64,000 nucleotides of DNA from positions 767,483 through 831,482 of the forward strand of contig CAWEPK010000008.1 of NCBI GenBank assembly GCA_963810935.1. The letters are read 5' to 3'. A model generated the notes under the pieces. The model had not been told where the DNA came from and did no database searches. It saw only the letters and a list, made by a program, of their open reading frames with translations. Position numbers and translations under genes: made by a program. Positions 3,659 through 9,659 of this stretch are shown here, one piece after another (position 1 is the stretch's first letter; each line of letters opens with the position of its first letter). This DNA is from an uncultured delta proteobacterium (lineage in GTDB: Bacteria > Desulfobacterota > Syntrophorhabdia > Syntrophorhabdales > WCHB1-27).

Positions 3659-3687
3659 TTGACATGGACGCGCGCGTGGTATAAACA
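3659..3687 (+). promoter_or_regulatory. Putative sigma70 promoter for the riboswitch leader
   Basis: TTGACA at 3659-3664 and TGgTATAAAC at 3677-3686, just upstream of the riboswitch. Confidence 0.55.
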
Positions 3688-3705
3688 ATATTAACAGTAC
3701 ATCAA

Positions 3706-3888
3706 TGGGCGTAGGATGGCTCATTTGAGCCGAGAAGGGAAGCCGGTGTGATTCCGGCACGGACCCGCCGCTGTGAATGGGGACGAAACCCGGACGTATT
3801 GCCACTGGGCCGTATGCATTAGACGAAACGGCCCGGGAAGGCGCGGGGATTAGGACGATCCATTAGTCAGAAGACCTGCCGCTGCCCA
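3706..3888 (+). ncRNA. Cobalamin (B12) riboswitch
   Basis: Conserved elements in order: AAGGGAAgccGGTG..attCCgg, CCCGCCGCTGTGA, GCCACTGG...CCGGGAAGGC and B12-box AGTCAGAAGACCTGCC; P1 pairing TGGGC..TAGG / CCTG..GCCCA. Confidence 0.93.
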
Positions 3889-3910
3889 CGGTAAAACTTG
3901 GAGAGAAGGT

Positions 3911-3950
3911 AAATCCCCAGGCTGACAATGTCGGTCCGGGGATTTTTTTT
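3911..3950 (+). terminator. Intrinsic terminator, expression platform of the B12 riboswitch
   Basis: AAATCCCC...GGGGATTT stem followed by a T-run, between the aptamer and the first gene. Confidence 0.8.
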
Positions 3951-3978
3951 ATTGCCCCGCCGGCGAAAGGAGTAGGAA

Positions 3979-4275
3979 GTGGCTAACGAGATTTCAATAA
4001 AGATCACGCCCGAGAACTGCCGGGGCTGCCGGCGCTGTCAGCTCGCCTGTTCCTCCTACGACCCGGGCCCGCTCAACCCGCGCCTCGCGGGGATCCAGAT
4101 CCTGAGGCTCGATGACGAAAGCGGGGAATGGCCGGTCGTCAACATGGAGTGCCTGGAGCGGTTCTGCGGAAAGTCGAATGCGCAAATCGGCGCAGAAAGC
4201 AAGCCCGCGTGCGTGGCAGCCTGCCTGTTCGGCGCGCTGGAAATGGAAAAGGAATTACCCAATGAAGAAGAGTAA
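3979..4275 (+). CDS. 4Fe-4S ferredoxin-like subunit of AOR
   Basis: CRGCRRCQLAC and PACVAACLFGAL motifs; overlaps the AOR start; GTG start with RBS AAGGAG. Confidence 0.82.
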   Translation: MANEISIKITPENCRGCRRCQLACSSYDPGPLNPRLAGIQILRLDDESGEWPVVNMECLERFCGKSNAQIGAESKPACVAACLFGALEMEKELPNEEE

Positions 4276-6142
4276 GAAGTGGTACGGATGGAGCGGCACT
4301 ATCCTGGAGGTCGATCTTACCGGCGAATCGGTCCGGAAGGCTGAGCTTTCCGAGGAGCTGGCTTACAATTACCTGGGACAGGCGGGGATCAACGCGCGCA
4401 TATTGCACGACCGCATCCGTCCGGATATGGACCCTCTGGCCCCGGAGGCGCCGCTGATCTTCGGCGTCGGCCCCCTGGGCGGCACGCTCGCCCCATGCTC
4501 CGGAAGGCTTTCCGTAACGTTCAAGTCGCCCCTCACCGGCATATTCGGCGACTCCAACTGCGGGGGCCACTGGGCCTCCGAGCTGAAGATGGCCGGATAC
4601 GACCATATCGTCATCACCGGAAAGGCAAAGCACCCCGTATATCTGTGGATCGACAATGATAAAGTGCAGGTGCGCGACGCGCGGTCCATCTGGGGAATGA
4701 GCACATGGGAGACGGACGAGGCGGTCCGGGACGACGTTGGCGAAAGGACCGCCCAGGTGGCGTGCATAGGACCGGCGGGCGAAAACCTCGTGCGGTTCGC
4801 CGCGATCATATGCAACCGGGCAAGGGCTGCGGCGCGATGCGGTCCGGGTGCTGTCATGGGATCGAAGAACCTCAAAGCGATAGCCGTGCGGGGTGACCGG
4901 GGCATAAACGTGGCCGACAAGCCGGCCCTGCGCGATGCAGTGGACGAAGCAGTAAGCGCCATCCTGGCCGATCCGCTTTATCAGTCGGCCAGCTTGTATG
5001 GGACACTTGCCATCACGCCGCTGGCGCAGGCCCTTGGGTTCCTGCCCACCCGCAACTTTCAGGAATCGACTTTCGAGGGCGCGGACGGGCTGTCTGGAGA
5101 GGTCTTCATAAAACAGTTCGCCACCCGGCACAAGGGGTGTTACAACTGCCCCGTCGCGTGCAGCAGGTTGTACAAAGTCGGCGAAGGGCAGTACGCGACT
5201 GCGGGCGAAGGCCCGGAATACGAGACGGTATCCGCCTTAGGCTCAAAGTGCGGCAACGGCGATTTCGAGTCGATCCTTCATGCCAATACGCTCTGCAACC
5301 AGTTGGGGATGGATACCATCTCGACGGGAAACGTCCTCGCCTGGACAATGGAGTGTTATGAAAAAGACATACTGAGCAAAGAAGACCTCGACGGCCTCGA
5401 CTTGCGCTTCGGCAACGCGGAGGCGATGGTCGAGATGATCAAGAAGATCGCGGCGAGAGACGGCCTGGGCGATGTGCTCGCCGAAGGCGCGTACAGGGCC
5501 GCGCAGCAGCTCGGCGGCGACGCATTCGTGGTGCACGGCAAGGGCATGGACTATCCTGCCGTCGATACGAGGGGGACGAAAGGCATGGCCCTCTCCTTCT
5601 CCGTCTCGCCCAGGGGCGGGGACCATCTGAAAGGTCTCTCCCTCTATGAAGTGGCGCCCGACGTCTACGCAGGGGACATCAGGAAGGAGACGGGCATAAC
5701 CGTCACGCCGCAGTACTGGCTACAATACGAGACCAAGGCGGAATTGATGCGCTGGCATGAAAACTGGCACTGCGTAGTCGATTCACTCGGCCTATGCAAG
5801 CTGGAAGGAATCGCTCTCAAGCCGCTTTTGCCTAGACACTTTCAGCGTCTGCTCTCGGCTGCGACCGGATGGGGCCCATCGGTTGCGGACCTTGAGACGA
5901 TCGGGGAAAGGATCTGGAACCTGGAGCGCCTGTTCAATATAAGGGAAGGTATGGGCAGGCAGGACGACCTGCCGCCCCGCCGCCTGCTGGAAGAGCCCAT
6001 CGCGACGGGGCCTGCAGAGGGGGAGCGGCTTGACCGGGGCCGGTACGAGCGGATGCTCACCGACTATTACCGGCTGCGCGGATGGGACCCGGAGACAGGC
6101 GTGCCGACCGGAGAAAAACAACGCGAGCTGGGATTGGCCTGA
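4262..6142 (+). CDS. aor: Aldehyde:ferredoxin oxidoreductase family protein (W/Mo-pterin)
   Basis: KSPLTG, IGPAGENLV, GAVMGSKNLKAI, CYNCPVAC, GPEYET, GMDTISTG, DSLGLC, YYRLRGWD motifs; start set at MKKSKKW. Confidence 0.93.
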   Translation: MKKSKKWYGWSGTILEVDLTGESVRKAELSEELAYNYLGQAGINARILHDRIRPDMDPLAPEAPLIFGVGPLGGTLAPCSGRLSVTFKSPLTGIFGDSNCGGHWASELKMAGYDHIVITGKAKHPVYLWIDNDKVQVRDARSIWGMSTWETDEAVRDDVGERTAQVACIGPAGENLVRFAAIICNRARAAARCGPGAVMGSKNLKAIAVRGDRGINVADKPALRDAVDEAVSAILADPLYQSASLYGTLAITPLAQALGFLPTRNFQESTFEGADGLSGEVFIKQFATRHKGCYNCPVACSRLYKVGEGQYATAGEGPEYETVSALGSKCGNGDFESILHANTLCNQLGMDTISTGNVLAWTMECYEKDILSKEDLDGLDLRFGNAEAMVEMIKKIAARDGLGDVLAEGAYRAAQQLGGDAFVVHGKGMDYPAVDTRGTKGMALSFSVSPRGGDHLKGLSLYEVAPDVYAGDIRKETGITVTPQYWLQYETKAELMRWHENWHCVVDSLGLCKLEGIALKPLLPRHFQRLLSAATGWGPSVADLETIGERIWNLERLFNIREGMGRQDDLPPRRLLEEPIATGPAEGERLDRGRYERMLTDYYRLRGWDPETGVPTGEKQRELGLA

Positions 6143-6148
6143 AGTGTA

Positions 6149-6604
6149 CTATCCGTACCGCGTCCTGAAGAACTGGTAGAAAAAGGCGACGGTAAGTCCG
6201 AACAGCATGTGGTTAAGGAGCCCGGCAACAAAGGCGGCCGGCCCGAGGAGCTTCGTCATATAAAAGCCCGGAGCGGTGACGACACCCGTTCGCAGACCTG
6301 CGTGGACTAAAGGCAAAGCGCCCATAAAAATGCCCAGGATCAGCCACTGGATCACGCTGAAGAGGAGGCCGAAGCGGTAACCGGGCCATCCGACGCCGGC
6401 CGACCAGAGGGCCGCGTAAATAAACGTAAACCCGACGCCCCAGACGAAGAGAAGAGTAAAGCCGAGGGGTTTGTTTTCTCTCCTCGTGAACATGGTGCTC
6501 AGATAGCGCTCCATGCCCATCAGGTTCATCGTCGTGAGCCGCGTAGTTACGAATAAGACTCCTGTTGCCGCTAGACCCGCTATGAGAGCGCCCGGTATGC
6601 TCAT
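6149..6604 (-). CDS. Hypothetical membrane protein (~4 TM)
   Basis: 151-aa ORF with several hydrophobic helices. Confidence 0.6.
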   Translation of the reverse strand: MSIPGALIAGLAATGVLFVTTRLTTMNLMGMERYLSTMFTRRENKPLGFTLLFVWGVGFTFIYAALWSAGVGWPGYRFGLLFSVIQWLILGIFMGALPLVHAGLRTGVVTAPGFYMTKLLGPAAFVAGLLNHMLFGLTVAFFYQFFRTRYG

Positions 6605-7219: not shown

Positions 7220-9659
7220 TCACATCTTCAGTGCTTCGGCTTTCAGAGAGACGCGCAGCGCATTTCCCGTCACCGTGATACTGCTCGCGAACATCGCAAA
7301 TACAGCCAGGAGAGGATTGAGAAACCCCGACGCGGCTGCCGGAACGGCAATTGCGTTATAGAAAAAGGCAAACAGCAGGTTCTGCCGCATGGAGCGGGCT
7401 GCGATGACGGAGAGCCTGTAGGCGTCGAGAAATAGAGCGGGGTCGGACGTCGTGAAGCTGAGATCGCACGCCTCGCTCGACAAACCAACAGCGGCACTGA
7501 CGCCACATCCCACGTCTGCTGCCGCGAGGGCGGCTGCATCGTTGATGCCGTCCCCGACCATTGCGACCTTGCGGCCGTCAGCCTGTAAGGCGCGGATGAT
7601 CCCGACCTTATCCGCCGGAAGGGCCTCGCCCTTGAAGCTGCTTATTTCCAGTAAGCAAGCCACGGACCGCGTGGTTTCCATGGAATCGCCTGAGACAAGG
7701 TATACATCCATGCCCCTTGCCCGAAGCGCAGCCACCAGCTCGCGGCTGCGCTGCTTCAGGGTGTCGCCGAGTACGAGGAAGCCCCGCACTGCCCCATCCC
7801 ACGCAAAAAACGCGACGGTCTTTCCTTCCGACTGCCGCAATCCGGCTTCGCGGGCAAACCGGTCGCCTAGCGCCATGGACGAGCATTCCATGAAAGCACG
7901 GCTGCCGATATAAATGTCCAGGCCGCTTGCGCGCCCCTTTACGCCCAAACCGTCGAACGCCTCGAATGCCCCGGCAGGCTCTATTTCTGCACCGATGCGC
8001 CTCGCCTCGCGGACTATCTCGCCTGCTATAAAGTGGTTCGAACGGACTTCGATAGAGGCAAGCCTGGCCAGCAACTCCGGCCGTTCGATCTTCTCGTCAC
8101 AGACTATCGCTTCGAGGGCATACCTGCCTTCCGTGAGCGTCCCCGTTTTGTCGAAGACTACCGTATCGATCTCTTTCATCTTTTCGAGCGCCTCGGCTGT
8201 GCGTATGATAATGCCTTTTTTCCGGGCGGCGCCCATCACTGCCGCCTTGACCAGCGGAACGGCGATGCCGAGGGCACAGGGGCAGGCGATGAGGAGCACG
8301 GCAAGGGACCGCAAAAAAACCTGCTGGGCCGCAATGCCCGTCCACAACGCAAAGAATCCCGTACCTGCGGCAATCGCAATGACGACGGGCACAAAGGCCC
8401 GGCTTGTCCGGTCGGCAAGCAGCTCGTACTTCCCTCTCCGGCCGAGGGCCTCCTCGACAGTCTCCACCATCCTGCCTATGACGCTTTCCCGGCTAGTCCT
8501 TAAAGCCTCAAGAATAACGCCCTCCCCGCCTGCAACGACGCTGCCGCCCGGCGCCTCATCCCCGGTGTTTAAGGCGCGCGCCTTGGATTCACCCGTAAGG
8601 AAGGAGACGTCGAAGAGGCCGCTACCTTTCACGATCCTGCTATCGACGGGCAGGCCGTCGCCCGGTGCAGCGACGAATCTATCGCCCGGCCGTAATGCAT
8701 CAGCCTTTACCCAGTGTTCCCTACCCGCATCGGTTATCCTGACCTTCCCGTCGAGGACGCGGTAAAGCTCCGTAATGCCCGATGTGCTCCGCTGCCGCGC
8801 CCGCATCTCGATATACCGCCCCAAAAGGACGAAAGCTGACGAGCATCGACGACGTATCGAAATAGAGATAGTAAGTCTCCATGCCTACCTGGACCGTACT
8901 GTAAACGTACGATGAGAGTGCGCCGATTGAGACGAGGGTGTCCATGGAAGGAAGGCCGCAAAAAAGGGAAACGGCCCCTCTGCGCAGGATGGGGAGACCT
9001 CCGTAAAAAAGAACGACGGAGGCCATGACCAGCAGAGGATAGGAGAAATAACGGATATCGGCAACATGCAGTTTCAGAAAAAAACCCGAATAAAGGGCAA
9101 AGGAGACCATCATAATATTTGCCGTAAGGATGGCCGAGACGCCGAGCCTCAAAAGCAGCGAACCGGCATCGCGCCCTGCCGCATCATAGCCGTAGCCCGC
9201 CGCCAGGTGATAGCCTAATCTTTCAGCCCTTGCCTCGATGGCCTTTGGCGATATTCTGTGGGGCAGGTATTTTACGCGGAGCGTATCGGTAGCGAACGAG
9301 ACGTCTACGTAAGTGACGCCTTTGCTTCTTGCGAGCACCTCACGGATGAGCCAGGCGCACGATGGGCACCACATACCGGAGACGTGGTAAGTGAGATCGA
9401 GGGGCGCCGGCTCAGTTTGATATTGAGACAGCGCGCCGGCCCCGCCGCCGTTCGATGCGGGTATGATCGCCCACTCCACGCACGCGCGGTAAAGCTCCGT
9501 CTCCCGGAAACCCTCGGGAGGCACGCCATTGGCCGCAGAAAGGATAAGGAAGACCTGCCGGCATCCGTGGCAGCAAAAATGTAACTCCCGGCCGTCCCGG
9601 TGCTCCTCTATTTCGGAAGTTGCCGTCTCCTGACCGCAAAGGTCGCAAGGTTGCGGCAA
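7220..9659 (-). CDS. ccoI: Heavy-metal (Cu) P1B-type ATPase, CcoI/FixI-like; frameshift near 8833
   Basis: N-terminal CDLCG..FCCHGC, HMA GMWCPSC, TGES, CPCALG, DKTGTLT, GDGINDA; split over ORFs 8721..9659 and 7220..8824; last gene of the oxidase operon. Confidence 0.87.

Follow-up and report, generated by a model that had tools for sequence, protein, structure and literature searches.

A corrinoid riboswitch conserved ahead of a ferredoxin-aldehyde:ferredoxin oxidoreductase operon in anaerobic Thermodesulfobacteriota and Bacillota

Background

Corrinoid (cobalamin) riboswitches are textbook OFF switches of genes for B12 synthesis, B12 uptake and B12-independent isoenzymes. Here, such a riboswitch is described ahead of an operon encoding a ferredoxin-like protein (Fd) and an aldehyde:ferredoxin oxidoreductase (AOR), in a stretch of 64,000 nucleotides (nt) of contig CAWEPK010000008.1 from an uncultured member of the Syntrophorhabdales (called 'the window'; coordinates given without a contig are positions in this window). 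We know of no AOR that uses a corrinoid, nor of any link between AOR and B12.

Three riboswitch systems are closest to this locus. That of Alkalihalobacillus halodurans cobT was the first activating corrinoid riboswitch to be described; its P13 hairpin and its terminator are mutually exclusive, and a ligand-stabilised kissing loop turns P13 into an antiterminator (PMC10653944). The repressing riboswitch of Priestia megaterium metE is composed of P13, a separate antiterminator built with the 3' side of P13, and a terminator (PMC10653944). As regards the genes under control, the nearest parallel is the riboswitch for the molybdenum/tungsten cofactor (Moco/Tuco), which is reported to stand likewise as a cofactor-sensing RNA ahead of AOR-type operons with a ferredoxin, but senses the enzyme's own pterin cofactor, whereas the RNA in the window would sense a corrinoid (PMC2408646).

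Results and discussion

A complete corrinoid aptamer and a terminator precede the Fd-AOR operon

The elements of the operon, all on the forward (+) strand, were located as follows (aa, amino acids):

3659..3685, +: promoter-like region, with -35 TTGACA (3659-3664), a 15-nt spacer and -10 TATAAA (3680-3685)
3696..3897, +: cobalamin riboswitch aptamer (RF00174) with P6 extension and B12 box, from the Rfam scan
3897..3921, +: conserved hairpin following the aptamer, candidate P13/L13, with 5' strand 3897-3904, 9-nt loop 3905-3913 and 3' strand 3914-3921
3911..3950, +: intrinsic terminator, with 5' arm 3911-3926, loop 3927-3929, 3' arm 3930-3945 and T8 at 3943-3950
3979..4275, +: 98-aa ferredoxin-like protein, with GTG start, eight cysteines (two [4Fe-4S] motifs) and weak Fer4 matches
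4262..6142, +: 626-aa AOR (AOR sensu stricto clade), matching PF02730 (3.3e-81) and PF01314 (1.7e-139)

An initial annotation of the window had described a promoter, a full B12 aptamer, a terminator, genes for a ferredoxin and an AOR, a convergent gene behind them and no B12 gene nearby, and all of this was borne out. In the covariance-model scan the aptamer scored 100.4 bits (E 6.2e-24), against a gathering score of 31.5 bits for RF00174, and covered the full model (positions 1-189 of 189); it was the sole Rfam match in the window. Its B12-box stretch aligned to the RF00174 consensus, and the L5 loop context, located by a pattern search at 3761-3769, read ACCCG, with A/UCCCG present in all 34 leaders of the covariation set described below; the L5 consensus for corrinoid riboswitches is UCCCG (PMC10653944). 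The segment 3696-3897 is a full class-I corrinoid riboswitch aptamer, for which ligand binding is predicted. Downstream of it, the terminator stem comprised 15-16 base pairs (bp), with interruptions, had a folding energy of about -21 kcal/mol and was found in minimum free energy (MFE) and centroid folds alike; a simple terminator pattern scan did not pick up the 3911-3950 hairpin. Upstream, a TG lies two bases 5' of the TATAAA -10 element, which was read from the sequence as TG-extended, and TTGACA was seen by eye at the equivalent position in many aligned orthologous leaders. The promoter was left uncalled in a consensus scan because its spacer is 15 nt long and the scan accepts 16-18 nt.

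The riboswitch-AOR pairing is conserved across two phyla

Related loci (numbered L###) were collected by protein-guided retrieval using one genome per species, which gave 36 loci, and by a metagenome scan, which gave 80; since some of the latter near-duplicate loci from genomes, the counts cannot be treated as independent. Loci with an AOR at least 63% identical to that in the window (63-84% in genomes, 66-85% in metagenomes) were taken as the AOR clade. Scored metagenome clade loci numbered 23, each with at least 744 nt of upstream DNA; four with less than 450 nt upstream were left unjudged, and two clade members (L014 and L027) were cut at the 5' end. RF00174 was matched upstream of Fd-AOR in all 17 genome clade loci that had upstream DNA (102-137 bits), approximately 400-600 nt ahead of the AOR start, and in 22 of the 23 metagenome clade loci. 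It preceded no scanned locus at or below 46% identity, being found in none of 18 other genome sources (AOR 30-45% identical, plus the cut clade member L027) and in none of 13 scanned metagenome loci at 39-43% identity. Across all 40 AOR leaders the aptamer scored 92-137 bits, and a hairpin with a U-tract stood at the matching place in 18/18 genome leaders and 22/22 metagenome leaders (the latter by eye). The Fd-like gene sat between riboswitch and AOR in 18/18 loci by tblastn (the match in L023 covering residues 1-40 only), and the order aptamer-terminator-Fd-AOR was kept in 39 of the 40 other clade loci with enough upstream DNA. The exception, which weighs against the pairing, is L129, in which no riboswitch was found within 1.5 kb upstream and Fd-AOR lies behind genes of an energy-coupling factor (ECF) transporter. 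In this locus (1-1514 of a metagenome contig), Fd-AOR starts 40 nt 3' of the genes for an ECF T component of the CbiQ type and for a membrane protein of 190 aa, which matched no family and is a possible S component.

When ORFs (open reading frames) were clustered across 19 loci, only the Fd and AOR clusters were common to them, and the other flanking genes were not conserved; the Fd-AOR unit therefore travels as a block. Aptamer, hairpin, terminator, Fd and AOR have passed on together, by inheritance and by transfer, among Thermodesulfobacteriota and Bacillota that are strict anaerobes. Carriers belonged to Syntrophales, Syntrophorhabdales, Desulfomonilaceae, Desulfatitalea, Desulfovermiculus, Desulfonatronospira, Peptococcaceae and Desulfallas; one carrier metagenome-assembled genome was labelled Bacteroidales, and protein matches extend the carriers to Acetohalobium, Natroniella and Desulfitibacter. 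The pairing, which the initial annotation had called unusual, is thus real, conserved and previously undescribed, and a corrinoid riboswitch is locked to a tungsten-type AOR across two phyla. No description of a cobalamin riboswitch before AOR, or before the radical SAM protein CbpB treated below, was found in the literature (PMC3766115 and PMC13119186 in their main text, the supplements of which could list one).

In both Bacillota genome loci, and only there, a ThiS/MoaD-like ORF of about 95 aa directly follows AOR (L015 4896-5186; L021 4879-5166), with weak Pfam matches (0.0086 and 0.001). In the metagenome locus L128, a c-di-GMP-I riboswitch (3975-4064, 74.6 bits) lies approximately 600 nt 3' of the AOR gene.

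A single hairpin fused to the terminator forms the expression platform

We read the class-I corrinoid riboswitch as governing the Fd-AOR operon by transcription attenuation. Directly after P1, the leader contains an 8-bp hairpin, the third stem pair of which is usually a mismatch and the loop of which has an invariant A, GG and AAA. Its 3' strand (3914-3921) lies within the 5' arm of the terminator (3911-3926), which also overlaps the end of the loop, and hairpin and terminator are therefore mutually exclusive; the hairpin is predicted to act as an antiterminator. With the 3' arm of the terminator withheld, it was the MFE structure in 19/19 leaders, in which hairpin energies ranged from -5.2 to -13.3 kcal/mol versus -16 to -31 kcal/mol for the terminators. 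When leaders were folded whole, the MFE structure was in every case that of aptamer and terminator, which was uninformative on the direction of the switch. Covariation was evaluated in 34 leaders with the common loop motif, where 81.3% of cells were paired versus 64.4% in shuffles (0/500 reaching 81.3%) and at most 59.8% in slid controls, figures of a kind that kinship among leaders inflates; all eight pairs had changes on both sides, and the stems differed completely between leader subgroups. The loop motif began 3-12 nt past the aptamer match in 37/40 leaders (7 nt in the window), leaving no room for a second hairpin in these, and small hairpins between the 3' end of P1 and the 5' strand of the conserved hairpin, looked for by eye with regard to competition between P1 and this hairpin, were not conserved.

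This layout resembles that of A. halodurans cobT (PMC10653944) in having an aptamer, a short linker and one hairpin, the 3' strand of which is the 5' arm of the terminator (the cobT order being seen in the sequence of Table S1), a GG in a 9-10-nt loop, no separate antiterminator and an L5 of the (U/A)CCCG type; the platform subtype found here also precedes cobT in five genomes. It differs in its cargo, an AOR operon instead of a cobamide gene, in the longer hairpin (8 bp, with a conserved mismatch) and much stronger terminator, and in the extra hairpin of three Bacillota-type AOR orthologues. With P. megaterium metE (PMC10653944), which represses, the leader has in common a class-I aptamer, a predicted kissing-loop logic and an intrinsic terminator. 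The metE mechanism, with the 3' strand of P13 shared with the antiterminator, could not be drawn on the window leader because no hairpin lies between P1 and the terminator-overlapping hairpin; the metE layout of P13, antiterminator and terminator is resembled by canonical leaders of the cobU/cbiM/btu type and by the three Bacillota-type AOR leaders.

The operon encodes a predicted two-subunit AOR

The AOR was full length, with both the AFOR_N (PF02730) and AFOR_C (PF01314) domains. Its best match in the PDB was the AOR of Pyrococcus furiosus (1aor, 2.3e-140), aligned across residues 8-626, with 9mqx_D, 9g7j_A and 8c0z_A as further, bacterial relatives; similarity to Aromatoleum aromaticum AorABC (8c0z, 6.7e-121) likewise extended over the full length. 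The motifs CxxCxxxC with a distal C, EGPEYE and RGGxH all aligned to 1aor, and we take them to contain the [4Fe-4S] cysteines and the catalytic Glu and His; by these conserved motifs, the enzyme looks catalytically intact.

The AOR start overlaps the end of the Fd-like gene by 14 nt. The best PDB sequence matches of the Fd-like protein were 8c0z_C (1e-6), 9mqx_E (3.3e-4), 6x6u_B (7.5e-4) and 4z3w_E (5.6e-3), and its solved relatives are Fe-S subunits of AOR-family complexes, including the WOR5 B subunit and BamC. It has about half the length of such subunits, and this, together with its eight cysteines, suggests two clusters rather than four; the protein resembles a short form of the AOR electron-transfer subunit of the AorA type. 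As with aorA in A. aromaticum, a separate gene for the Fe-S subunit lies upstream of the catalytic gene; unlike AorABC, in which this subunit has 192 aa (8c0z_C) against 98 aa (eight Cys, two predicted clusters) in the window, the operon has no gene for an FAD/NAD subunit and stands under a B12 riboswitch. From synteny and the PDB sequence matches, we read Fd and AOR as a probable two-subunit enzyme, and the operon would encode a dedicated tungsten/molybdenum-pterin AOR (metal and activity being predicted) together with a small 2x[4Fe-4S] electron-transfer subunit. This genome, which is 93% complete, contains eight AFOR_C paralogues and five cobalamin riboswitches, and a riboswitch precedes only this AOR. 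Whichever the sign of the switch, the platform shared with the genes treated below gives a defined physiological context to one of many orphan AOR paralogues.

The same platform subtype precedes late cobamide genes

Cobalamin riboswitch leaders were surveyed in the carrier genomes, with 72 RF00174 matches from 17 carriers and five from this genome (77 leaders), and were classified by a mechanical rule: presence of the loop motif, at least 4/6 flanking pairs, and a 3' partner ahead of a U-run. By this rule the platform was assigned to 27 leaders, namely all 18 AOR leaders, five of cobT, three of cbpA/cbpB and one of an outer-membrane channel gene (PF13557); a fourth cbpAB leader (L099) had the loop motif and failed the rule. 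The remaining 50 leaders preceded cobU (9), cbiM (4), acsC (4), one cobT and others, among them genes for TonB-dependent receptors, FecCD, CbiK, a CobC-type phosphatase, CbiZ, CbiJ, CobN and NrdDG. In eight of these that were folded, P1 and the terminator-overlapping hairpin are set apart by a separate hairpin with a C-G-Y-G-G loop (the loop motif read by eye), an arrangement that matches the metE model. The net gain from the antiterminator, estimated crudely, had a median of -2.6 kcal/mol in the AOR-type platform (n=26) and a larger one, of -4.4 kcal/mol, in the other leaders (n=39); the smaller gain counts towards activation.

A near-identical copy of the AOR leader elsewhere in this genome (G000 C7:97805-98009; L002/L058) drives cbpA, encoding a 30-aa peptide, and cbpB, encoding a radical SAM/SPASM protein (TIGR04163, 'rSAM_cobopep', 657 bits). 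The CbpA/CbpB cassette thus has riboswitch, platform and platform-subtype regulon in common with the AOR operon and differs in its proteins, a peptide and its maturase. In G403, cobT lies directly 3' of cbpB, and in this genome cbpAB is followed by a 206-aa ORF and cbiMNQO, after gaps of 319 and 269 nt. The CbpA peptides, including those of L078, L080 and L099, have a conserved Tyr-containing motif in common.

A motif scan (loop plus arm) over 401 genomes of the phylum matched 15 genomes. Six of these, all of one genus (L046-L051), had real riboswitch leaders before ThiC-family (BzaF/BzaAB-like) radical SAM genes of 436 or 407 aa, with a hairpin stem of only about 4 bp. The other nine matches outside this genome had no terminator and were taken as chance. 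The channel gene behind the platform in L105 (G412 C37) belongs to the PF13557 'phenol degradation MetA-type' family (2.4e-42), and its product may serve to take up an aromatic base for the lower ligand. By these assignments, AOR shares its platform subtype with late, lower-ligand-related cobamide genes, and not with uptake or early-pathway genes. Whichever the sign of the switch, the shared platform groups AOR with cobT, the BzaF-like gene and the uncharacterised CbpA/CbpB cassette, and offers a testable entry point to a poorly known subject, namely how anaerobes supply cobamide assembly with lower ligands or reducing power.

Activation and repression weighed

We slightly favour an ON switch, with a corrinoid activating Fd-AOR, at a probability of about 0.5. 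In the predicted mechanism, the weak, mismatched hairpin would be displaced in the absence of ligand, the terminator would form and transcription would stop ahead of the Fd gene. With corrinoid bound, L5 of the aptamer would kiss the invariant GG of the hairpin loop and hold the hairpin, which would block the terminator and allow Fd-AOR to be transcribed, as in A. halodurans cobT. Since the window leader has the topology of this only validated activating corrinoid riboswitch, the premise of the initial annotation, namely that the switch represses, was not secured. If activation is true, dozens more natural activating corrinoid riboswitches would stand beside the only one described, and a simple sequence rule would mark ON switches: a single terminator-fused hairpin with no separate P13.

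The same parts would also make a conventional OFF switch, to which we assign a little less than an even chance: corrinoid would lock the aptamer, free the 5' arm of the terminator and cause termination, and AOR would be made when B12 is scarce. In the apo state the 5' arm would be held by the small hairpin and/or a complementary aptamer segment, and in Bacillota-type leaders an extended antiterminator would be dissolved by a ligand-locked P13. A number of observations weigh for this and against activation. Of the corrinoid riboswitches that were functional in the Taga-lab reporter sets, 38 acted as repressors (PMC9600662) and only one as an activator (PMC10653944). In three of the 40 AOR leaders, all Bacillota-type (L015, L021 and L128), a further hairpin stands between P1 and the conserved one; it has CGGG in its loop and looks like the P13 of a canonical OFF design, and its 3' strand overlaps the extended antiterminator. 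A fourth Bacillota-type leader (L141) is without it, and 37 of the 40 leaders have no separate P13, which speaks for activation. The complementarity between L5 and the hairpin loop amounts to 2-3 bp, the third pair being Watson-Crick in 25/34 leaders with two independent double changes, and this covariation is a hint of a kissing loop that is suggestive only. A terminator-overlapping hairpin, the conserved loop of which is rich in A and contains GG, is likewise present in canonical leaders of these genomes, so that loop conservation alone is no proof of a kissing loop. Two points tell against repression. A kissing loop is needed by all studied corrinoid riboswitches, and here it would form on the terminator-blocking hairpin itself. 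At about -6 kcal/mol against -21 kcal/mol for the terminator, the small hairpin would be a poor antiterminator in the apo state. Complementarity to the 5' arm of the terminator was also found in an aptamer segment, [U/C]GGGGA (duplex about -10.6 kcal/mol), for which two lineages, L011/L145 and L142/L143, show compensatory changes. This segment could serve as an apo-state antiterminator giving an OFF switch, but the complementarity is broken in L012 and in L013/L127, and a similar 4-bp aptamer-arm match was seen by eye in the validated ON riboswitch. Finally, in this genome the paralogous leader stands before cbpAB and, further on, cbiMNQO, and cobalt uptake is expected to be B12-repressed; in three other genomes examined, however, cbiMNQO was not part of the cbpAB unit and no cobalt transporter followed cbpB.

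Two further explanations have far less probability. That riboswitch and operon were juxtaposed by chance, or that the riboswitch is decaying and has no regulatory role, would draw on nothing beyond the unusual cargo; aptamer, hairpin, terminator and gene order are kept across two phyla with compensatory changes, close orthologues keep the riboswitch, and the chance rearrangement considered in the initial annotation thereby fails, so that we give it next to no weight. Ethanolamine ammonia-lyase and diol dehydratase, both B12-dependent, release aldehydes, and an AOR that oxidises these would fit an ON switch. The ethanolamine link was rejected, as EutB (PF06751) was found neither in this genome nor in any of 17 other carriers, with the E. 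coli control matched. A search of this genome for the large subunit of diol dehydratase (PF02286) found nothing, a weak blank given that control genomes matched none either, and eut or pdu genes were near none of the loci; we regard this role of AOR as very improbable.

Possible roles of the enzyme

As the platform subtype of AOR also drives cobT, cbpA/cbpB and BzaF-like genes, AOR may come under common regulation with the final steps of cobamide assembly, those of the lower ligand and the nucleotide loop, a weaker proposition than the ON mechanism. Its likely role there would be either to act as a low-potential redox partner or to make or consume an aldehyde/acid intermediate. Few redox couples other than acid/aldehyde can reduce Co(II) corrinoids, which makes AOR conceivable as a source of very low-potential electrons. 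A role in late cobamide assembly is conceivable as guilt by association, through the regulatory grouping, and this counts against pressing it further. Across 18 carriers, ThiC-family matches were single in 13, absent in two and several in three (those of G401 being pieces of one broken gene), from which it appears that most carriers probably lack a BzaF paralogue and must obtain the lower ligand otherwise. The carriers were judged to be corrinoid-rich anaerobes: in this genome, 14 matches to B12-binding domains lay above the cut-off.

The initial annotation had tied the enzyme to corrinoid metabolism, by way of acetaldehyde released in anaerobic ring contraction or of lower-ligand precursors, or else to the bypass of a B12-dependent step. 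The tie to corrinoid metabolism, and above all its lower-ligand part, gained circumstantial support from the platform shared with cobT, cbpA/cbpB, the ThiC/BzaF-like gene and the aromatic channel, whereas the acetaldehyde part found none, the associated cargo being late-stage and not early-stage. A bypass is possible only if the switch is OFF. In that case, AOR would either help cobamide synthesis and be co-repressed with cobT, cbpAB and the BzaF-like genes, or, equally plausibly, provide a B12-independent outlet from reduced ferredoxin to carboxylic acids, for times at which methylmalonyl-CoA mutase or the corrinoid-dependent acetyl-CoA pathway is stalled. In favour of an OFF switch, 15 of the 17 carriers, like this genome, encode the large subunit of the corrinoid Fe-S protein (CFeSP) at full length, making corrinoid-dependent carbon metabolism central to them. 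Under activation, a broader scheme can be drawn, which we regard as doubtful when taken as a whole: a widespread natural class of activating corrinoid riboswitches, with a single kissing hairpin fused to the terminator, would turn on a 'late cobamide' regulon of cobT, the BzaF-like gene, CbpA/CbpB, the aromatic-base channel and AOR with its mini-ferredoxin. In this tentative scheme, the trigger would be a corrinoid, perhaps an incomplete one, and AOR would catalyse an undescribed redox or precursor step in lower-ligand provision or the reduction of Co(II) to Co(I).

Neighbouring genes and other riboswitches

The operon is bounded on its 3' side by one further feature:

6149..6604, - strand: convergent ORF (151 aa) without a family match, marking the 3' limit of the operon

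This ORF was not kept in other loci. No btu, cob, cbi, metE or nrd gene was found within approximately 6 kb of the Fd-AOR operon, and its neighbours in the window, genes for a Mo-hydroxylase, a flavin reductase, a PRC-barrel protein, a P-type ATPase and a cbb3 oxidase, include no B12 gene. The gene for the large subunit of the Mo-hydroxylase (766-2959, +) appears to be broken up into ORFs 766-2469 and 2210-2959, which overlap, lie in different frames and each match portions of MoCoBD profiles, indicating a frameshift or an assembly error. The gene for the heavy-metal P-type ATPase (7220-9659, -) is divided in a similar way, its HMA N-terminus being encoded by ORF 8721-9659 and its ATPase core by the overlapping ORF 7220-8824.

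Among the other riboswitches of this genome, one lies within the acs operon (G000 C16:126944-127121; L001), between acsB and acsC, the latter encoding the large subunit of CFeSP. It has no terminator and a Shine-Dalgarno sequence nearby, and is kept in three of 17 carriers (L075, L076 and L081) as well as in this genome; repression of the B12-binding subunit by B12 would be odd. In the carrier genomes, tandem cobalamin riboswitches, with two to three aptamers within about 1 kb, were found at L060, L066 and L069, ahead of genes for CbiZ, a 545-aa secreted protein and a NifH-like/Oxidored_nitro protein.

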